From: Candidatus Heimdallarchaeota archaeon
Lineage (GTDB): Archaea > Asgardarchaeota > Njordarchaeia > Njordarchaeales > JAMOTR01
Length of the DNA: 14,777 nt
Direction: 5' to 3'
Assembly (NCBI GenBank): GCA_027068385.1
Contig: JAMOTR010000022.1
Span: forward strand, 1-14,777
Shown: in pieces, positions 4,433 to 14,777 of the stretch
How the letters are laid out: every line of letters starts with the position of its first letter
How positions within the stretch are numbered: position 1 is the first letter of the stretch
Made by a program: the position numbers and the translations under genes
The notes under the pieces: model-generated
What the model saw: the letters and a program-made list of their open reading frames with translations, nothing else
Database searches by the model: none
What the model was told of the DNA's origin: nothing

Positions 4433-5385
4433 GCATAGTGGAGGAGGCTGTTAAGTCATGGCCGGAGGTTATAAGATCTTTTCTAAAGAAGTTTCCCGGG
4501 GTGGAGCTTCCCGTTAAGGAGCCTCGCTCTATAGTAATTTCCGGAATAGGCTCCTCTGCCGCGGGAGGGTTATTTCTCGAACCTATAAGTCCGGTTCCCG
4601 TGGTTATCTCTAGGGACGTAGTGTTACCGAGGTTTGTATCCCCCAAGGATCTAGTATTAATATGCTCCTATTCCGGTAACACGCCCGAGACTTTGTTGAG
4701 CTTAAGGGACGCCTTAGCTAGGGGCATAAATCCCGTAGTTCTCACATCGGGCGGTAAGCTCTTGAGCGTAGCCGAGGAATTAGGCCTCCCGCTAGTTAAG
4801 ATAGAGCCCGGTGGGTATACGAGCAGGGCCATGGTGGGCTTAATAATCACGGCTACGATCGCGACTGTTGACCCCATAGTGAACGCTCGGAACCTACTAG
4901 AAAAAGTCCCGGACGTGCTCGCTTGGGCAATTAAGGACGAAGAGAACATACGCTCTATCGCCTTAAGGATCGGAGGAAGGGCTATAGTATCCGTAGGTTA
5001 CGGCCCTTATAAGCCGGGAATGAAGCGTATCGTGGCGGAATTTAGGGAGAACTCCAAGCTTCCCGCGTTCTACGTAGAACTCCCAGAAGGAAATCATAAC
5101 TACTATGTTACTTTGGGCCACCCAGGCGTGATACATCTGTATCCTGAACACGAGCGGAGGTCGAGCCTAGCGAAGCACGCGTTCCGGCTTAACGATAAGG
5201 AGCACGTACCCATAAGGGTCTCGAATCGGGGATTCCTAGGAAACTTCGAGATCCTAATTAAGGCGGCACTATCCTCGATAAGACTAGCGAGGCTTCTGGG
5301 AAGGGATCCGGACGATATAAGAGCTATAGAGGAAATCAAAAAGAAGTTCTTGGAAGAAATGAAGGACGTTTTTAAACGAATATGA
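4429..5385 (+). CDS. bifunctional phosphoglucose/phosphomannose isomerase (crenarchaeal PGI/PMI, SIS domain)
   Basis: ISGIGSSAAGG, CSYSGNTPETL, and RIVAEFRENSKLPAFYVELPEGNHNYY (compare the NEFNENAK...LPEAHHN block of Pyrobaculum/Aeropyrum PGI/PMI). I prefer the ATG at 4429: it is preceded by GGAGTGAGGTG (SD-like) and forms an ATGA overlap with the upstream stop. A GTG at 4423 is the alternative. Confidence 0.75.
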   Translation: MSIVEEAVKSWPEVIRSFLKKFPGVELPVKEPRSIVISGIGSSAAGGLFLEPISPVPVVISRDVVLPRFVSPKDLVLICSYSGNTPETLLSLRDALARGINPVVLTSGGKLLSVAEELGLPLVKIEPGGYTSRAMVGLIITATIATVDPIVNARNLLEKVPDVLAWAIKDEENIRSIALRIGGRAIVSVGYGPYKPGMKRIVAEFRENSKLPAFYVELPEGNHNYYVTLGHPGVIHLYPEHERRSSLAKHAFRLNDKEHVPIRVSNRGFLGNFEILIKAALSSIRLARLLGRDPDDIRAIEEIKKKFLEEMKDVFKRI

Positions 5386-6100
5386 ACAGCGTCTCTTCTT
5401 CGTAATGCCTATCGAGCGTAATTCCTCCACGAATCCTTAATATGCGCTTACCTAGTACCCGACGTTCGAACTCCCTCACGCGTTTCTCTACGTCCCCTTT
5501 GAGGAACTTTATAGGAACGGTAACGAACAAAGGTCTCGCGGGCATCACGTGTCTAGTCGTCTTAGCCGGGAAGAGGCGACCCTCTAATGCCCTCTCTACG
5601 ACGCGATCTTTAGATAGTTCGTACGGCAACACCGCGAGCTTATCGGGTTCCCTATAGTGTAGGAACGCGATGTTTTCCTTGCCGTACTCAGCGTCTAGAA
5701 TCTTCACGGCCTCTTCCGATATCCTAAATACGTCCTGACCGTATACTATCCGCTCCCCCATAGGATCCTCGAAATCCTTAAGCTTAGCCTCCCGAGACCG
5801 ATCGTTAATGTGTCTTACCCACACGTCGAGTTTCACGATCTCGTAAGGTATCTTAAACGCGGGAATAAGGTCCAATCCCAACACCTTAGCGGCCGCGAGC
5901 CTATGCATTCCGTCGAGCACAACGTTCGTGTCCTTCTCCACTATGATCGGATGCTCTATGTATCCGGACCTCTTTATCGCCTCCACGAGCCTCTTAAGTG
6001 ATCCCTCAACGATCTCCTCATGAGGATATACTTCCTCTATAGGTAGGAGCGTAAGCTCGCACGCGTAGTACTTATCGTTATATTTTAGATGAAGCCGCAT
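5372..6100 (-). CDS. ParB/sulfiredoxin-fold domain protein; possible free serine kinase (SerK)-like enzyme
   Basis: 242 aa. The ParB-N-like core HPIIVEKDTNVVLDGMHRLAAAKVLGL has the DGxHR motif, and YPHEE lies near the N-terminus. Size and architecture resemble the archaeal ParB-annotated ADP/ATP-dependent serine kinases. The start codon directly abuts the argS stop (6100/6101). Confidence 0.55.
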   Translation of the reverse strand: MRLHLKYNDKYYACELTLLPIEEVYPHEEIVEGSLKRLVEAIKRSGYIEHPIIVEKDTNVVLDGMHRLAAAKVLGLDLIPAFKIPYEIVKLDVWVRHINDRSREAKLKDFEDPMGERIVYGQDVFRISEEAVKILDAEYGKENIAFLHYREPDKLAVLPYELSKDRVVERALEGRLFPAKTTRHVMPARPLFVTVPIKFLKGDVEKRVREFERRVLGKRILRIRGGITLDRHYEEETLFIFV

Positions 6101-8062: not shown

Positions 8063-9187
8063 ATGTTGATCGTAGAGAGCATAAGGTATACGGCTCCCTT
8101 AGGATCGATTAGATATTTCACGCTTATGGCAGCTCCGAGTGGTAACGACTTCTCGTTGTTGCTCTTCGATCCCGGTCCTCCTGGGACGGAAAAGATGATA
8201 TTATATCACGTGAGAAAGGTGGAGAAATACCTAAGAAGAAACCTTAACGCTAAAGTTAAGCGCGTTTATCTTCTACTCACGCACACGCACCCCACCACGG
8301 CCGGATCGTCGGGATCCCTAGAGAAGGCGTTGAGACAATATGACGTAAAAACGTACGCGCACGTCCGGTCGATTCCGCTCATAGAGAAAGGGAAGAAACC
8401 GGAAATGTGGTTAGAACACCGGTTCGAGCGGGATACTCATAGGAAGCTACGGCTTTTCTACAGCCTCTCTCCAGTGGTATATCGGCCGTACTATACGCGG
8501 TACGTATCGACGTACTCTCTACCCGAGAAAATAGAGCCGCTAATACCTACAGATCGGTCCCCGGAGACGTTCTCTCGGCATAAGCTCGACCTCGACGTGG
8601 ACGTCGATATAAGGTGGATGCGGACCGCGGGTCATACTTATGAGCACGTAGTGTATCGCGTCGATGGAGATGAATTCACCGCACTCGTGCTCGGTGACGA
8701 GGGGCCTGTGATACTGGGGGCGTTTCCTATATGGTATAACGACTCCACCTCCCGGGCGTTCGCGCTTAAGGATTTAGAGAAGCGCCACGACGCGATCCGG
8801 AATGGTATTGAAGAAGCCCGGGTATACCGGACTCACGGAGCTCACAGGTATACTTATGAGGAGCGGAAGGTCATGGTCACGAGATATCTAAATGCGCTAT
8901 GGGAGGCGGCTAGCACGGAGTTCGAGTCCTTAGAAGAGGCTATAAGGATGCGCGTCTCAGACGCGGCCGCAGCGATGCTCTTGTGGGACTACTTCTCTAA
9001 ATATCCCGAGACCATAAAGCGCTCGAAGATACGTAAGACGCATTACATAAACGCGGAAAACTTACCTATATTTACCACGAGAGCGGCTTTAATATATCTA
9101 AACGGCCGCGGTCTTCACAGAAAAATCGTCACGAGGAACTTGGATCCGAAGGGAAGATATCGGTACATCGAGGTGATAACGCCCTGA
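8063..9187 (+). CDS. hypothetical protein with a degenerate metallo-beta-lactamase-like fold and a possible C-terminal winged-helix
   Basis: The MBL-like order of blocks is LLLFDPGP, LLLTHTHPTTAG (HxHxDH with D and H both replaced by T), AGHTYEH, LVLGDEG and THGAH. The C-terminal LIYLNGRGLHRKIVTRNLDPKGRYRYIEV looks like a wHTH wing. Confidence 0.4.
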   Translation: MLIVESIRYTAPLGSIRYFTLMAAPSGNDFSLLLFDPGPPGTEKMILYHVRKVEKYLRRNLNAKVKRVYLLLTHTHPTTAGSSGSLEKALRQYDVKTYAHVRSIPLIEKGKKPEMWLEHRFERDTHRKLRLFYSLSPVVYRPYYTRYVSTYSLPEKIEPLIPTDRSPETFSRHKLDLDVDVDIRWMRTAGHTYEHVVYRVDGDEFTALVLGDEGPVILGAFPIWYNDSTSRAFALKDLEKRHDAIRNGIEEARVYRTHGAHRYTYEERKVMVTRYLNALWEAASTEFESLEEAIRMRVSDAAAAMLLWDYFSKYPETIKRSKIRKTHYINAENLPIFTTRAALIYLNGRGLHRKIVTRNLDPKGRYRYIEVITP

Positions 9188-10073
9188 TAAGCCTCCGAAG
9201 GCTCCGATTTACCGGGGCGTTTAACCCTTTATTTTCGGCTTTCTCCACGATCTTACCGTTTATCCGATCTATCTCCGTAGGCCTCCCGCTTAATACGTCC
9301 ATAGCCATCGAAGAATAATTGTTATACGTAAGCTCGATACCCCTTCTTACGATCGATATCATGTCGTCCGGAAGCTCTACCCCGTAAGCCTTCGCTACCT
9401 CGACCGTCTCCTCCGTCGCCCTTTTGACCACTTCCCAAGCGTCCTCGCGTTCTAATATTTCCCCGTTTTTAATCCTTAGAAGAGCAGTTACGGGGTTTAT
9501 CCCAGCGTTTATCGCGGCCTTAAACCGCTCTATGAATGGCGTCTCGTTGATCTCTACAGGTAACCCGGCTAGTTCCCGTAAGCGTTTGAACTCCTCACAC
9601 TTCCCTCCCTCGTCTCTACCTATGAGCGTCTTATTTATCCCGGCTATGAAGACCGTGTTCTTAGATTTCCTATACGCTCCGATCCCCGTCACTCCACGTA
9701 CAGGATTACTCACCGAACCGGCGACGAAGTCTAAGATATCGAGCCCGTTTTGTAGGAAGAGCGTGGGCCTCTCGAAGCCGCGCCTCTTAAGTTCTTTGAG
9801 CCTTTTTACTACGCTTCCTAAATGGTAGGCCTTTACCGTTACGATGACGAGCTCGGGTCTCTTCTCTAATATCTTTTGAATCCCCTCTTCTCTTTCCCGA
9901 TTTATAAAGAGCGCGTTATAACGTCCGCTTAGACCTTCTATATCGCTTTCCGCGAAAATTATGTTCTCCTTCACGTCGCTCCTCGTAAGTATTATTACAT
10001 CCACGCCCGCCTTAGAAAAAAGCGCTCCTAGAGAGAGGCCTATAGAACCGTTTCCCACTATCGCTACCCTCAT
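9129..10073 (-). CDS. panE: 2-dehydropantoate 2-reductase (ketopantoate reductase, PanE/ApbA family)
   Basis: It has the N-terminal Rossmann MRVAIVGNGSIGLSLG, the FKAAINAGINPVTALL block with the catalytic Lys, and SSMAMDVLSGRPTEIDRINGKIV (SMxxD...TEID signature). The ATG overlaps the stop of the upstream 796-aa gene (ATGA at 10070-10073). Confidence 0.8.
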   Translation of the reverse strand: MRVAIVGNGSIGLSLGALFSKAGVDVIILTRSDVKENIIFAESDIEGLSGRYNALFINREREEGIQKILEKRPELVIVTVKAYHLGSVVKRLKELKRRGFERPTLFLQNGLDILDFVAGSVSNPVRGVTGIGAYRKSKNTVFIAGINKTLIGRDEGGKCEEFKRLRELAGLPVEINETPFIERFKAAINAGINPVTALLRIKNGEILEREDAWEVVKRATEETVEVAKAYGVELPDDMISIVRRGIELTYNNYSSMAMDVLSGRPTEIDRINGKIVEKAENKGLNAPVNRSLRRLIRALSPRCTDIFPSDPSSS

Positions 10074-12460
10074 ATCTCGATGAGTCTTATATACCGTTTA
10101 TTACCTCCCTTAGCGATAAGCGGCAGGTATCCCTCGGAGATGTTTCTGAAGAAGGAGCCGAAGTACTCTTGGAGTATGCGCTCGTCCCTTACGGGCATCC
10201 GCCCTTTCGAAGCCTCCGATAAGAACGATGTGTCGAAGGGAGCTACGTCCCTAGCGGCCACTTTATATGCTACGTCCTGGAAGTACGATGTATTTACTAT
10301 TCCTACAGAGCCGTTACGGTAAGCTAGCGTCACTACGGTCTCCGCTTCCCCATAAAGGCTCACGTATCCGAAATTAGACGCGATGTTAAACAATGAGTAT
10401 AGCGCCTCCTCGAACGTGATCGTGCGCTTCACGAGCATCGATAACTCCATCACCTCCCTAAGCCTCAGGGGCCTCAACCTCTCCTCTTTAATCTCGTCCC
10501 GTAAGGAGAGCGTTAGTCCGCTCGAGGCGGCTACCTTAAAGAGGTGTATATGTACTTTATCGATCACGTACGGCTTAGAATTGAGGGCATAACGCAACTT
10601 CGTGAAGATCTCCTCAGCGTCACCGTGAGCTATGTATAGGACGGACTTAGAAGGATGATCGCCCACGAAGTCTATGTACTCTAAGAGCTCCGAGAGGCTC
10701 TCACCGTAATAGCTCGTAATTAACGCTAAGGGTATCGAGAAGAGTACTATAGGATGAATGCGTATGAGATACAAGAAGCGCTTCTGGGAACCTATGTACT
10801 TCTTCCGGAGCTTTATGAACTCCCTTATGAACTTCGACGTATACCTTTCCGCTACGCTCGCGGGCCGTTCGTGTTTTCCTCCTGGCGAGTTCCGATCTAG
10901 TATCCCCCGTACGATCCAAGAGAAGGCGAATATATCGGAGAGCAAGGGGAAGCTAGTTTCTAGTATCCGCTTCGTCGAAGCTATTTTCGTGCTTCTCACA
11001 TACTTTAACCGGGTCCTACCTTTATCGTAGAAGATCTCCGCGGAACTTAACCGCCCCGTCTGTAGCGCGTCGGCTACGAACGTTAATAGTCTATATCCCG
11101 TCCGCTTACGCATAGGCGAACCCAATGAATATATGAAGTTCAACGCTACGGAGGCGTCCACAACGGCCGTGCGCTCTTTAGCGAACGTCTTCTTTAGTAG
11201 CCGTAGCCGGAATGGGAGCTCGAAGATCACGTCATCCATATATTTCACGTCGAAGGCCTCGAAGTTCTTCCTAAGGAACTCATATAGCGGGGTGTCCTCG
11301 CCACCGGGAACGCGCCTGATGCCGTCTTCCGTAATGAGGCCCGTCGGTATGTTATTTACTTGATCGCTCGAGTATACGTAGGAAAGTGCCTTATAGAGCG
11401 CGCTTAACGCATCCCCTATGAGGAGTTTTATGTTATCTTCCTCTACCATGCGCGACAACGTCTTACGTCTCAGATCTACGACCATCGCTAGTCCTAAAGC
11501 CTTCGCCTCGGATGAGGTAAGCGAACGCTTTAATGCCCTCTCTATGATACTAGCCGGTGAGATCCCCTCTTTACCGAAATAACGGTCACCGTCCGACCTA
11601 TACCGAGACAACGCGTCTAAGAGTATATCATGAGTAACGGGCATCGTCCGGTAGAGGCGTTTATCATATTGTAACATCCGAACCTTCTTCTTAAGACCGG
11701 GTATACCGACGTAGAACCCCAAGAGCGTTATGAAAGATAGTATGTCCTTCCTTTCGAGGCCCCGTAACCGTGATGATAACGATTCTACCTCGTCGAGACC
11801 GGGGCTAAATGAGATAAGGCCGAGGACACCGTGGAGGAAAGTATCCGAAGGGGCCGAGACGACCCTATTGATATAAAGCGTCTCCGCTACTATTTGGTTT
11901 ATATACGGGCTCCTCGATCCTAATAGGGCCTCTAGGATTAGCGTGTTCTTACCGGTAACGATCTCGGGCTCGCTTACGATCGCTAACCCCTCGTTTTCGT
12001 CGAGCCGCACCTTATACATGGACTTATCGTTTAACATCCCTAAGACGCGGGATAAGAGGAGGGATAAGGAGATGATGACGCGCGGCTCATCGGCCCCTAT
12101 GGGTGAGAATAATCTTATTGGAACGCCATGGAGCCCGGTGTAGAAAGAACCTAAGAGCGAAGAGGCTACGAGCATCGAATACGTCCGCTTCGTTCCGTCT
12201 CCCGTCTGTAGCTCTTTCTCTAGTTCCTCTATGTCCTTCCGGGCGGGATAATCGGGTATGATGTTCACGCTACCGTGGGCGAACAACGCGGTCTTCGTCT
12301 CGTCTATAGCCTTCATTAACTCATACCTATCTATCTTGAGGAACTCGGAGAGCACGTCTATAGTCTTTTCTATCGTATCTTCCGGCCTCTTAGCCCTGAT
12401 CTTCGTGTTCTCTATCAAATACGCTAGTCCGGGGAGCCCGATGTGTTCAAGTACGCCCAT
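10070..12460 (-). CDS. large (796 aa) uncharacterised protein with no recognisable catalytic or nucleotide-binding motif
   Basis: This is an uninterrupted 2.4-kb ORF with codon usage like its neighbours. It has zero Cys, one Trp, no Walker A, no HD, no GGDD, no HxHxDH and no zinc-finger pattern. It is divergent from the RAMP cassette and translationally coupled to panE. Confidence 0.6.
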   Translation of the reverse strand: MGVLEHIGLPGLAYLIENTKIRAKRPEDTIEKTIDVLSEFLKIDRYELMKAIDETKTALFAHGSVNIIPDYPARKDIEELEKELQTGDGTKRTYSMLVASSLLGSFYTGLHGVPIRLFSPIGADEPRVIISLSLLLSRVLGMLNDKSMYKVRLDENEGLAIVSEPEIVTGKNTLILEALLGSRSPYINQIVAETLYINRVVSAPSDTFLHGVLGLISFSPGLDEVESLSSRLRGLERKDILSFITLLGFYVGIPGLKKKVRMLQYDKRLYRTMPVTHDILLDALSRYRSDGDRYFGKEGISPASIIERALKRSLTSSEAKALGLAMVVDLRRKTLSRMVEEDNIKLLIGDALSALYKALSYVYSSDQVNNIPTGLITEDGIRRVPGGEDTPLYEFLRKNFEAFDVKYMDDVIFELPFRLRLLKKTFAKERTAVVDASVALNFIYSLGSPMRKRTGYRLLTFVADALQTGRLSSAEIFYDKGRTRLKYVRSTKIASTKRILETSFPLLSDIFAFSWIVRGILDRNSPGGKHERPASVAERYTSKFIREFIKLRKKYIGSQKRFLYLIRIHPIVLFSIPLALITSYYGESLSELLEYIDFVGDHPSKSVLYIAHGDAEEIFTKLRYALNSKPYVIDKVHIHLFKVAASSGLTLSLRDEIKEERLRPLRLREVMELSMLVKRTITFEEALYSLFNIASNFGYVSLYGEAETVVTLAYRNGSVGIVNTSYFQDVAYKVAARDVAPFDTSFLSEASKGRMPVRDERILQEYFGSFFRNISEGYLPLIAKGGNKRYIRLIEI

Positions 12461-12499
12461 AGAATTATGTACTCCCGGGAGAGAAAAAGTAGTGAGCTC

Positions 12500-12555
12500 G
12501 ATGATGAGAGCGGGCTATACTGATCGTAGGATGAGGAGTGAATCCCAAGCTGAAG
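12500..12555 (+). ncRNA. archaeal C/D box sRNA (2'-O-methylation guide) with two 12-nt guides
   Basis: C box AUGAUGA (12501-12507), a 12-nt guide GAGCGGGCUAUA, D' box CUGA (12520-12523) and a 7-nt spacer. Then C' box AUGAGGA (12531-12537), a 12-nt guide GUGAAUCCCAAG, and D box CUGA (12550-12553). The 12-nt box spacings are the archaeal hallmark. It lies in a non-coding divergent spacer, and an AATTAT element at 12463-12468 could be its TATA box. Confidence 0.7.
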
Positions 12556-12563
12556 TTTAAGAG
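12556..12563 (+). promoter_or_regulatory. TATA-box-like element TTTAAGAG about 27 nt upstream of the ATG at 12587 (implies a leaderless or near-leaderless transcript for the RAMP cassette)
   Basis: The AT-rich octamer comes directly after the sRNA D box. Its distance to the first ATG of the 144-aa gene fits archaeal TATA-to-TSS spacing. Confidence 0.35.
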
Positions 12564-12586: not shown

Positions 12587-13021
12587 ATGAAAAACAACCC
12601 CCGTAGGAGGGATATGGATAAAGAAGCCTCTCCGTGGATAACTAAGGACGATATCAGAAATCGGAACGAAGAGAGACTCATAGAGAAGATCGAGAAGAAC
12701 TTGAGCAGGCTTAAGGGTAGAAGGGAGCTAAGCAGAGGAAACGTGTATAACGTCCTTTATAAGATAAAGATCGCCCGCGTATACCTCGAGAACCTCGGGG
12801 AGGAGAACGATAAAGCTAAGAAGGCCGTTCACGACGCTATCTTGGAGTTCTCGAAGTTCTCGGTTAAATACCTAAATAGAAACACCTTAGAAGAGGTAAT
12901 CAAAGCTTATGAGGAAATGCTCCACGAGAACAACGGGGCGGAGGCGACGTTAAGGTTCTTAAAGGTCCTCGAGGAGCGGCTTACGACCCTCGCCATCCCG
13001 CTATATAAGAAGAAAGCCTAA
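12587..13021 (+). CDS. small, highly charged, predicted all-alpha protein; positional candidate for a type III small subunit (Cas11/Csm2-like)
   Basis: 144 aa, with K/E/R/L-rich heptad-like helices. It lies 3 nt upstream of the Csm3-like gene, in the slot csm2 occupies in type III-A operons. I see no sequence motif that proves this. Confidence 0.35.
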   Translation: MKNNPRRRDMDKEASPWITKDDIRNRNEERLIEKIEKNLSRLKGRRELSRGNVYNVLYKIKIARVYLENLGEENDKAKKAVHDAILEFSKFSVKYLNRNTLEEVIKAYEEMLHENNGAEATLRFLKVLEERLTTLAIPLYKKKA

Positions 13022-13024
13022 AGG

Positions 13025-13858
13025 GTGAGGCTTATGGAGAACGATAATAAGTACTCCTTCCAGCTCAGGATATACGTAGAGATACCCGTAGTCGTAGAGG
13101 TAAGAACGGGCCTGTTCATAGGCGGTTTAGAGAGCGACGTGGCGGATAATCCGATCATAAAGGATAAGTACGGATACCCCTACATCCCCGGATCCTCGAT
13201 CAAGGGGAGGATACGCTCTATACTAGAGTTGCTGAACGGAAACATAGACCCCTCAGGAGGGCCGCGGAACCCCGAGAAGGCGCTAAATTTATCCAATAAT
13301 CCTTCCCCTGATGAGTTACGTAAGGTATATGAAGATGTGCTCGCGAGGGTGTTCGGGTACAGTCCTAAGAACAATCGGTTCTTCGGCCCCACCCGCATAT
13401 ATATCGAGGACTTCGTGCTCGAGGATAAGGAGGGAAAGAGCCCGCTCGACTTCATGGAGCTGAAGCCGGAGAATCAAATAGATAGATACACGGGACAAGC
13501 TAGGAACCCGCGCATCGTGGAGCGTATCATCCCGGGATCGAGGTTCCGCGGTAGGATAAAGATCATAGCGTTCGACGTGAAGGAGGGGGATAAGCTCATT
13601 AAAGACGCTAAGAGCGAGCTTAAAGAAGCTCTGGAGTTAGCGCTAGTGGGTCTAAAGCGGCTCGAAAGGCTGGGCCTAGGAGGAAAAATCTCGCGCGGGT
13701 ACGGACAGATAAAGATAAGAGTAGGGAAGGTAGCCGGGAAGAACGTAGCGATATTCCCTAGCAAGATGGGCGGAAAAGAGTACGAAGAGAGTGAGATTAT
13801 AGAGCTCGTTAACAGCCTAATAGGAAAGTATCTCGGTGGTTCGGATGCAGGTGCCTAA
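13025..13858 (+). CDS. csm3: type III CRISPR RAMP backbone subunit, Csm3-like (Cas7 family)
   Basis: VRTGLFIGGLESDVADNPIIKDKYGYPYIPGSSIKGRIRS (glycine-rich start, candidate catalytic Asp, RAMP PGSS.KG..R motif). Also RVFGY, TRIYIEDF, ENQIDRYTGQARNPRIVERIIPGSRF and the C-terminal G-rich loop LGLGGKISRGYGQIKI. An alternative start is the ATG at 13034, preceded by GGTGAGG. Confidence 0.85.
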   Translation: MRLMENDNKYSFQLRIYVEIPVVVEVRTGLFIGGLESDVADNPIIKDKYGYPYIPGSSIKGRIRSILELLNGNIDPSGGPRNPEKALNLSNNPSPDELRKVYEDVLARVFGYSPKNNRFFGPTRIYIEDFVLEDKEGKSPLDFMELKPENQIDRYTGQARNPRIVERIIPGSRFRGRIKIIAFDVKEGDKLIKDAKSELKEALELALVGLKRLERLGLGGKISRGYGQIKIRVGKVAGKNVAIFPSKMGGKEYEESEIIELVNSLIGKYLGGSDAGA

Positions 13859-14777
13859 GAGGACCCTCTTGGGAGACGGTTCGGTGAAGCTTTCGATCGA
13901 GTTAAGGTTCGACGTTTTTAACGGCAAGGGCTTCTACTCGATACTCTCACAGACCACGAGGATCGAGAGCGCGATAGATCTCAAGCCCCTCAAGCTCTCC
14001 GACGTGGTAAAGAAAGCTTTCTACGCTCCGATATCGGGCGCTAATACCATTCATGAGGTGATAAAGCACCCAAACGGAACAGCGTACGTGCCTGGCTCCG
14101 CGTTAAAGGGGGCGATACGGACCACGATGGCCCTATCGGATCCGAACGCCTTCGAGCAGATATTAAATAACGTGAACCTCATGAGGGTTCTCGGGTACAC
14201 GTTCATCGTAAGGGACGTCGATATAGGGGAGCCGGACGTGATGGAGGCGACGCGCATATACGTAACCAACTGCCGCACGGTAAGGAACGTAAGGAGGCTT
14301 CAAGAAGTCCTCTCTAAGAGCTTCTCGTTCGATATACTCTTTAGGGAGGTGGACGTCCCCGTCGATAAGTTCGTCAAAACGATAAATAACAAGCTCCCGC
14401 CCGAGTCTCTAGAGGCGCTTCGGGATCTCAAGAGGATGGGTAACGTGATACGCGTATCCCCGAATCCTAATAAGTTTAAGGACGCGATCATAAGGGGGTC
14501 TCAGGAGATAAATAAGAGGCTCAAGAGGCGGCGCTCAATGGGCACTCGGTGCAAAAACATCGTCCGGAGCGGAGAGGCGAACTTCGCTTTAGGCTTCGGG
14601 AGCTCGTGTGTGACTAAAGTACTTAGGATCAAGAGGGCGCCCGGGAGGTTCTCTTGTTATAAGCGCAATCGGGTCATGGATAACTTCCATAGGAGCGGCT
14701 TTCCTCACTCCCTTTGGACCGTAAAGATCGACGACAAGTATTATCCCCTGGGGCTAGGAAAAATAGCGGTAAAATAA
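13836..14777 (+). CDS. type III RAMP protein, Csm5-like (Cas7-group capping subunit) or related divergent RAMP
   Basis: YVPGSALKGAIRT (compare Csm5 IPGSS.KGAIRT), the glycine-rich LGFGSS, and a C-terminal YPLGLGKIAV resembling the P.GW.K terminus of Csm5. It overlaps the csm3-like gene by 23 nt (GTG at 13836) or 14 nt (ATG at 13845). The stop codon is the last triplet of the window. Confidence 0.6.
   Translation: MVRMQVPKRTLLGDGSVKLSIELRFDVFNGKGFYSILSQTTRIESAIDLKPLKLSDVVKKAFYAPISGANTIHEVIKHPNGTAYVPGSALKGAIRTTMALSDPNAFEQILNNVNLMRVLGYTFIVRDVDIGEPDVMEATRIYVTNCRTVRNVRRLQEVLSKSFSFDILFREVDVPVDKFVKTINNKLPPESLEALRDLKRMGNVIRVSPNPNKFKDAIIRGSQEINKRLKRRRSMGTRCKNIVRSGEANFALGFGSSCVTKVLRIKRAPGRFSCYKRNRVMDNFHRSGFPHSLWTVKIDDKYYPLGLGKIAVK

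Follow-up and report, generated by a model that had tools for sequence, protein, structure and literature searches.

Introduction

In the Csm complexes of type III-A CRISPR systems, Csm3 (a Cas7 protein) forms a filament on the CRISPR RNA (crRNA) guide and, by means of an aspartate, cleaves the target RNA bound there at intervals of 6 nucleotides (nt). Csm5 forms the cap at the 3′ end, Cas11 subunits run along the target strand, and Cas10–Csm4 holds the 5′ tag and provides cyclic oligoadenylate (cOA) synthesis and HD-DNase activity. To our knowledge, all multi-subunit type III effectors described so far use a Cas10–Cas5 foot, the sole exception being type III-E, in which the Cas7 domains are fused. 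Here we describe a cassette at the right end (positions 12,587–14,777) of a 14,777-nt stretch of DNA, hereafter the window, from Candidatus Heimdallarchaeota archaeon (contig JAMOTR010000022.1 of assembly GCA_027068385.1). It consists of three co-oriented, closely spaced open reading frames (ORFs) that encode a small protein, Csm3 and a Csm5-like protein. Tentatively, and at somewhat less than an even chance, the cassette is read as a chromosomally fixed, selected, reduced derivative of type III-A that comprises guide-coating backbone subunits only.

Several reduced type III systems provide a frame for comparison. Type III-E is a crRNA-guided RNase without Cas10 or Cas5, made of Cas7-like modules and a Cas11 module (bioRxiv 10.1101/2022.06.13.496011). 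It is one fused polypeptide of about 1,600 amino acids (aa) with an adjacent array and TPR-CHAT, whereas the cassette has separate ORFs of 144, 274 and 310 aa. No array or protease gene of the III-E kind is present at the cassette, and the NCBIfam model for Cas7-11e (NF041225) matched it with E 0.082 and 10 bits against a cutoff of 700. Types III-G and III-H keep Cas5 and a cyclase-dead Cas10 with an HD domain, and have lost the catalytic Asp of Cas7 (PMC12669027). The cassette resembles them in its reductive type III evolution and in having no adaptation module, but it has neither Cas10 nor Cas5 and its Csm3 keeps the Asp. In type VII (Cas14–Cas7–Cas5) and type IV (Csf1–Cas7–Cas5), both reduced derivatives of type III, another protein has taken the place of Cas10 (PMC12669027, PMC8730458). 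Both keep Cas5, and type VII requires Cas14, a beta-CASP nuclease, whereas the cassette has no Cas5, Csf1, DinG or Cas14. In T. thermophilus Csm complexes without Cas10, the other subunits keep their stoichiometry (PMC5256923).

By analogy, the cassette would work most like the backbone of type III-A, with a subunit logic that resembles an unfused type III-E. It shares with type III-A a Csm3 above the curated equivalog cutoff, full-length homology to Csm5, the order small protein–csm3–…–csm5 and the gene sizes (776, 152, 248, 293 and 306 aa for the proteins of the L017 operon). It differs in having in cis neither cas10 nor csm4, the genes of signature, obligate subunits, and in having no cas6, cas1/2, Csm6/CARF gene or array within 41 kb. 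On its content in cis, the cassette falls outside type III-A, as it does outside types III-E, III-G/H, IV and VII. Its small protein is unrecognizable as Csm2, and it is set among housekeeping genes, apparently inside the transcription unit of the deoxyhypusine synthase gene (dhs). Generic partial or orphan cas loci likewise hold a subset of effector genes without array or adaptation genes. The cassette, in contrast, appears to have been open for long, is ameliorated in composition, shows mostly synonymous single-nucleotide polymorphisms (SNPs) and is fixed in an operon with an essential gene.

Results

The middle gene of the cassette, csm3 (13,034–13,858, + strand), encodes a Cas7 backbone RNase of 274 aa that by its sequence is a genuine Csm3. 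The protein scored 130.4 bits against TIGR02582, for which the curated cutoff is 90, and matched PF03787 at 1.5e-20 and the PADLOC Csm3 models at 1.5e-39 at best. Among PDB chains the best match was 4qts_C, the M. jannaschii Csm3 (1.3e-23). ATG 13,034, preceded by a GGTGA Shine–Dalgarno sequence, is the likely start rather than GTG 13,025. In characterized Csm3 proteins the catalytic Asp sits in the DNP-motif loop. The ADNPIIKD segment of the cassette protein aligns with TDNPVIRD and IDNPVIKD of the M. jannaschii and T. onnurineus Csm3 structures, and the equivalent residue, Asp38, is kept. Residue-level alignment also found the motifs IPGSSIKGRIRS and GLGGKISRGYG intact.

The nearest relative of this Csm3 in 5.8 billion proteins was 37% identical. 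Exact-sequence look-ups with two alternative Csm3 starts gave no match, and a contig scan with Csm3 returned distant type III loci only, none from the window organism. The three closest relatives whose context was checked all belong to full cas10-csm2-csm3-csm4-csm5 operons that also have cas6 and cas1/2, which points to derivation of the cassette from a III-A operon through loss of cas10 and internal loss of csm4.

Two further observations concern csm3. In two samples the assemblies were split within this gene, with the remaining half of the locus on a separate contig. L004 ends at window position 13,251 and L005 at 13,503, and L033 and L034 begin inside csm3. These breaks suggest strain heterogeneity at this point. 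On a contig of Candidatus Tiamatella sp. (WALV01000017.1, 9,971–17,610; L010), the N-terminus of an archaeal RAMP protein is 47% identical to residues 19–72 of the window Csm3. The RAMP gene is followed by ORFs of 179, 532, 340 and 1,176 aa, and the locus is probably another type III variant.

The third gene (13,845–14,777, + strand) overlaps csm3 by 14 nt and encodes 310 aa from its likely start, ATG 13,845, which follows GGTGG (alternative start 13,836). The protein is best described as a diverged full-length homologue of Csm5 with a hidden Markov model (HMM) score below the curated cutoff: it reached 28.5 bits against TIGR01899 (cutoff 38.3) and 9e-10 against the PADLOC Csm5 model, and the HMM matches to Csm5 span residues 60–100 only. 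BLASTP aligned it with the Csm5 of L017 at 1e-4 and not with the Csm4 of that locus. Consistent with this, hhalign gave 92.9% probability (E 3.7e-7, 38 columns) against a Csm5 profile and about 1%, without signal, against a Csm4 profile. In a full-length MAFFT alignment with four Csm5 proteins, three motifs were collinear. The first is YVPGSALKGAIRT (Y81VPGSALKGAIRT), the second is L249GFGSSCVTK (Csm5 consensus IGGGxGxxxKT), and the third is PHSLWTVK...P-L302GLGKI (Csm5 consensus SPHxLKCTK...EMGLCKI). A word-indexed search of the 5.8 billion proteins returned no homologue.

The first gene (12,587–13,021, + strand) lies directly upstream of csm3, in the csm2/cas11 slot, and encodes a small all-helical protein. 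It measures 144 aa from ATG 12,587 or 135 aa from ATG 12,614; the latter has GGAGG upstream and was the start chosen by the gene callers. There was no family match in Pfam, NCBIfam, PADLOC or PHROG and no match to PDB sequences. A single-sequence AlphaFold2 model showed a five-helix bundle with a pLDDT of 69.5. Foldseek found nothing significant for this model in the PDB; S. epidermidis Csm2 (8do6_C) was ranked ninth among generic helical bundles, with E 0.9 and TM scores of 0.41/0.48. Nor did hhalign detect a signal against Csm2 profiles. Directly upstream of csm3, each of the five complete III-A operons inspected has a csm2 of 132–161 aa. Position, size and all-helical character make the protein a candidate Csm2/Cas11. 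The first-pass annotation had called a small protein of helical character next to a clear Csm3 and a RAMP of the Csm5 kind, and the ORFs together with the HMM and alignment evidence bear out these calls.

The surroundings of the cassette were followed beyond the window. The window itself has a GC content of about 50% and archaeal gene content, with genes for ribosomal protein L11, class I arginyl-tRNA synthetase (ArgRS), inositol-1-phosphate synthase, S-adenosylmethionine (AdoMet) decarboxylase, tRNA-Gln and TatD. Five public contigs were reached through the 796-aa protein encoded upstream of the cassette. Among them is the 326-kb ENA contig ERZ27262635:k141_92148, which is 99.97% identical to the window (4 mismatches in 14,708 nt) and was taken as the parent contig. 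The stretch studied, 41.2 kb in total, reaches 16.7 kb from the cassette in the direction of dhs and 22.3 kb in the opposite direction.

One option raised in the first-pass annotation was that the remainder of an ordinary type III locus lies past position 14,777. Extension of the sequence refuted it. The csm5 stop codon is followed by 10 nt and then by the ATG of dhs, with no cas10, csm4 or array downstream. Beyond dhs come a gene for a secreted protein of 558/628 aa and then rpL5 and rpS4e. A locus cut by the window edge is thus refuted, because dhs and housekeeping genes follow the cassette and no cas gene joins them in the 41 kb. This stretch holds ribosomal protein genes and genes for peroxiredoxin, ArgRS, LysRS, PGI, CTP synthase, an ABC transporter and similar housekeeping functions. 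Its single cas-related Pfam match is the RAMP domain of Csm3. The other two options of the first-pass annotation, a satellite backbone module that borrows Cas10/Csm4 in trans and a reduced effector with a non-Cas10 partner, are both compatible with the 41 kb covered.

The initial observation that Cas10, Csm4/Cas5, Cas6, adaptation genes and an array are missing could be extended from the window to the whole 41 kb. Queries of Cas10, Csm4, Cas1, Cas2 and Cas6 from three complete loci gave no tblastn match to the 41.2 kb, and its ten unannotated ORFs had no NCBIfam match to any cas family. For Cas10, no HMM, Pfam or tblastn match was found in the window or in the parent stretch. No csm4 lies between csm3 and csm5, which overlap, and none was matched elsewhere in the 41 kb; the same stretch has no match to Cas6 and no Csm6/CARF gene. 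CRISPR repeats were absent from L001, L035 and L036 (41.2 kb), and the ATTGAAAS tag was absent from the window. No defense-island or mobile-element context was seen in the 41 kb.

The left boundary of the cassette is a C/D-box small RNA (sRNA; 12,497–12,555, + strand), which is not a cas component. It is located in the 126 bp that separate the cassette from the 796-aa gene. Its boxes are C (ATGATGA, 12,501–12,507), D′ (CTGA, 12,520–12,523), C′ (TGAGGA, 12,532–12,537) and D (CTGA, 12,550–12,553), with two 12-nt guides, GAGCGGGCTATA and GTGAATCCCAAG. No Rfam family matched at its gathering score, as expected because the guides differ, and all 21 sub-threshold Rfam matches were to archaeal C/D-box families on the same strand. 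The core of the sRNA is invariant in three lineages, namely the window organism, L006 (about 545–600, − strand) and L029 (480–531, + strand). Judged by these features, it is a canonical archaeal C/D-box methylation guide that is older at this site than the cassette. The sRNA noted at this position in the first-pass annotation is accordingly real and now has a class. A role as a crRNA-like guide was considered and rejected, given its canonical C/D boxes and its presence without the cassette in L029.

L029 (JGI Ga0256833_1067876, 1–1,644) was recovered by a metagenome scan with an 18-mer of the sRNA covering the C box and guide, which returned 14 loci, 13 of them chance matches. In L029 dhs begins 28 nt after the sRNA, and its product is 76% identical to that of the window organism. 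A 159-aa membrane-protein ORF upstream extends into the C box of the sRNA. Both the cassette and the 796-aa gene are missing from this sRNA–dhs site. Because the sRNA stands next to dhs in L029, sRNA–dhs is a conserved adjacency and the cassette lies exactly within it, either through insertion in the window lineage or through deletion in L029.

The second relative, L006, encodes housekeeping proteins that are 78–92% identical to those of the window organism (ArgRS 78%, L11 92%). Its sRNA is flanked by the gene for a 777-aa homologue of the 796-aa protein and by a helical ORF of 146–162 aa, 24% identical to the small protein of the cassette. After this small ORF come GGTGA-N4-ATG, with the GGTGA–ATG spacing seen in the window, and 19 codons of a next gene; the contig stops 67 nt past the small ORF. 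The protein databases searched gave no orthologue of Csm3 or Csm5 for the L006 organism.

A TATA-like box, TTTAAGA (12,556–12,562, + strand), lies 24 nt upstream of ATG 12,587 and is read from the sequence as a putative promoter. L006 has TTTATTA 22 nt ahead of the ATG of its small gene, and L029 has a T-rich box ahead of dhs. The gap between the small gene and csm3 (ATG 13,034) is 12 nt. With the csm3/csm5 overlap and the short csm5–dhs gap, we infer that a promoter 3′ of the sRNA would drive a leaderless cassette–dhs transcript.

The GC content, the GC at third codon positions (GC3) and the codon usage of the three cassette genes are indistinguishable from those of neighboring housekeeping genes. 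Since its composition is host-like, the cassette is not a recent arrival. All three ORFs are intact. SNPs were counted over seven strain-level contigs. Synonymous and non-synonymous sites numbered four and three in csm3, five and one in csm5, and 11 and one in dhs; the small gene had none. For csm3 and csm5 together, 9 of 13 SNP sites were synonymous, whereas random changes would give 23% (P = 5e-4). This pattern is that of expressed, constrained genes and is similar in kind to dhs, as far as sequence comparison indicates. A concentration of SNPs in the cassette was also considered and rejected, the density being equal or higher in dhs and the downstream genes.

The divergent gene upstream of the sRNA (10,070–12,460, − strand) encodes a 796-aa orphan protein, a candidate partner of the cassette whose membership is unproven. 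No match was found in Pfam, NCBIfam, PADLOC, PHROGs or PDB sequences. Its one homologue is P0002 (777 aa, L006 630–2,963), at 49% identity. A word-indexed search and an exhaustive HMMER search over 1.84 billion representatives gave this same single match, and a metagenome scan with the alignment of the protein gave none. The AlphaFold2 model, built on a two-sequence alignment, was unusable (pLDDT 32.5), and its low-confidence secondary structure is nearly all helical. Both in the window and in L006, the gene has a 4-nt overlap with panE/apbA, which lies downstream of it. The gene had been noted as divergent and of no assigned function in the first pass; it stays without an assigned family, with no evidence of a link to Cas10.

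Other genes of the window were inspected in passing. A 374-aa protein of no family (8,063–9,187, + strand) has a 368-aa orthologue in L006 (3,791–4,897, − strand), 54% identical. The window protein contains the strings THTHPTTAG and GHTYEH, which recall a degenerate metallo-beta-lactamase, and its L006 orthologue gave a non-significant Lactamase_B match (E 0.29). A 242-aa protein abutting ArgRS (5,372–6,100, − strand) is 84% identical in L006 and has a sub-threshold ParB_N match (E 6e-4, 20.2 bits against a cutoff of 26.3). The tRNA-Gln (TTG) gene at 2,690–2,765 (− strand) scored 70.5 bits. A listed 235-aa Metallophos ORF (2,023–2,730) would overlap it, and the 213-aa start used by the gene callers avoids the overlap. 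On the parent contig, about 22 kb from the cassette (L035 20,164–20,786), a 449-aa, aCPSF-like beta-CASP/RMMBL metallo-beta-lactamase protein is encoded among housekeeping genes; nothing ties it to the cassette.

Discussion

According to the tentatively favored reading, the cassette has kept a helical protein in the Cas11 slot, the Csm3 (Cas7) RNase and the Csm5 cap, and would have lost the Cas10–Csm4 foot, Cas6, the adaptation genes and the array. It would be transcribed as a unit with dhs from the putative promoter just 3′ of the sRNA. By analogy with Csm complexes, Csm3 protomers would polymerize along an RNA, Csm5 would cap its 3′ end and the small protein would line the opposite face. Asp38 of each Csm3 could then cut base-paired target RNA at 6-nt intervals. 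The outcome would be RNA binding and cleavage without cOA signaling or HD-DNase activity; since only the Cas10–Csm4 element is absent from the cassette, a ribonucleoprotein of Csm3, Csm5 and the small protein without a signaling or DNase arm is what would be expected. A crRNA supplied by an array at another place in the genome would be the most likely guide. We infer the mode of assembly, the guide source, independence from Cas10/Csm4 and co-transcription with dhs.

Several points weigh against this reading. The full cassette is seen in a single species-level population. For the small protein, no similarity to Csm2/Cas11 could be detected. There is no Cas5-family subunit to bind the 5′ tag of a crRNA, and among class 1 effectors we know of none but type III-E that does without one. 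Partial cas loci are common in genomes. The SNP counts are small, assembly errors may account for some of the SNPs, and the P value would be weakened by a transition bias. Finally, a complete type III locus with arrays may be present elsewhere in the genome and supply Cas10 and Csm4, the stretch covered being about 41 kb, taken from a single contig of a metagenome-assembled genome.

This last point leads to an explanation that is doubtful but still carries appreciable weight, in which the three proteins are a satellite backbone and assemble on crRNA with Cas10–Csm4 and Cas6 from such a complete locus. It fits the finding that exactly the Cas10–Csm4 foot is gone and all filament subunits are kept, and purifying selection is compatible with any functional role. 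Subtype III-G offers a precedent: no array has been found in its loci, and recruitment of crRNAs in trans has been proposed (PMC12669027). Against it stands the isolation of the cassette Csm3. With no protein more than 37% identical in 5.8 billion, any second type III system deposited for this organism must have a very different Csm3, which argues on sequence grounds against simple sharing of subunits with systems represented in databases; the partner would be very divergent and heterologous assembly doubtful. Nor was a second Csm3 from the 326-kb contig found among the best 120 matches.

In a stronger form of the favored reading, the cassette would be an unfused Cas10- and Cas5-free type III derivative, a multi-subunit parallel to type III-E with separate Cas11-like, Csm3 and Csm5 proteins, that acts as an autonomous RNA-guided RNase or RNA-binding complex, is co-expressed with dhs and may use the 796-aa protein as a large subunit of a new kind. 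We consider this stronger form unlikely.

That the cassette is a functionless remnant, left of a III-A operon after deletions and read through owing to its place between a promoter and an essential gene, is improbable. The commonness of partial cas loci speaks for it, as does the loss of csm4 from the middle of the order, such that csm3 abuts csm5 in a way that resembles a deletion. The small protein has also diverged beyond recognition between two related lineages, and L029 has no cassette. However, the three ORFs are intact, and the catalytic and structural motifs of Csm3 are kept although its nearest relative is only 37% identical. The SNPs are mainly synonymous, and a small ORF persists at the cassette site in L006. 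Because its composition is fully ameliorated, the cassette is old and yet still open.

Quite improbable is a four-gene minimal effector in which the 796-aa orphan would be a Cas10- or Cas8-like large subunit that has diverged to an extreme degree and perhaps stands in for Cas5 too. Its size is comparable to that of Cas10 in related III-A loci (726–896 aa), and its gene adjoins the cassette divergently with the 126-bp control region in common. The protein is known from the window organism and the L006 lineage only, both of which have a small ORF at the cassette site, and it evolves fast (49% identity against 78–92% for housekeeping proteins). The Cas10 of subtype III-I is likewise beyond sequence recognition, having no detectable similarity to Cas10 and being recognized by structure only (PMC12669027). 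However, BLASTP, hhalign and hmmsearch comparisons with Cas10 and with all ORFs of 11 type III loci gave no signal. The protein has no HD or GGDD motif and no cysteines, hence no Cas10 zinc finger, and its low-confidence predicted structure is almost wholly helical. Its 4-nt overlap with panE/apbA makes it look co-transcribed with a gene of CoA biosynthesis, and the neighboring ApbA and 374-aa proteins evolve about as fast (54% identity between window and L006). Since the C/D-box sRNA separates them, the 796-aa gene and the cassette did not come in as a single block. Assignment of the locus to type VII was tried and rejected, as neither the 796-aa protein nor the cassette proteins have a Lactamase_B/metallo-beta-lactamase or beta-CASP domain.

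Exaptation, with a CRISPR-independent Csm3 filament that binds or cuts cellular RNA and is expressed with dhs, is very improbable: it would suit the translation-related surroundings (C/D-box sRNA, dhs, ribosomal proteins, ArgRS), the apparently common transcript with dhs and the 41 kb free of defense-island or mobile-element context, but the distribution is very narrow, the close relative L029 does without the cassette, the fast evolution of the small protein is more typical of defense genes, and there is no candidate non-CRISPR guide, the adjacent sRNA being an ordinary C/D-box RNA that occurs in L029 without the cassette.

Conclusions

What is unusual about the locus is a combination of features: long residence, mostly synonymous SNPs, a kept catalytic site, extreme divergence and a fixed position in a housekeeping operon, shown by a relative without the cassette. 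Should the cassette be a leftover that depends on a full locus at another site, it would be a minor curiosity; alternatively, it may be a clean natural case of backbone subunits common to loci in trans. Comparison of L029 with the window offers an unusually clear before-and-after view of a cas fragment fixed in a housekeeping operon. If the reading as a selected cassette is true, a Csm backbone would be useful without its Cas10–Cas5 foot, as a minimal Cas7-filament RNase, and the cassette may represent a possible intermediate of reductive type III evolution.

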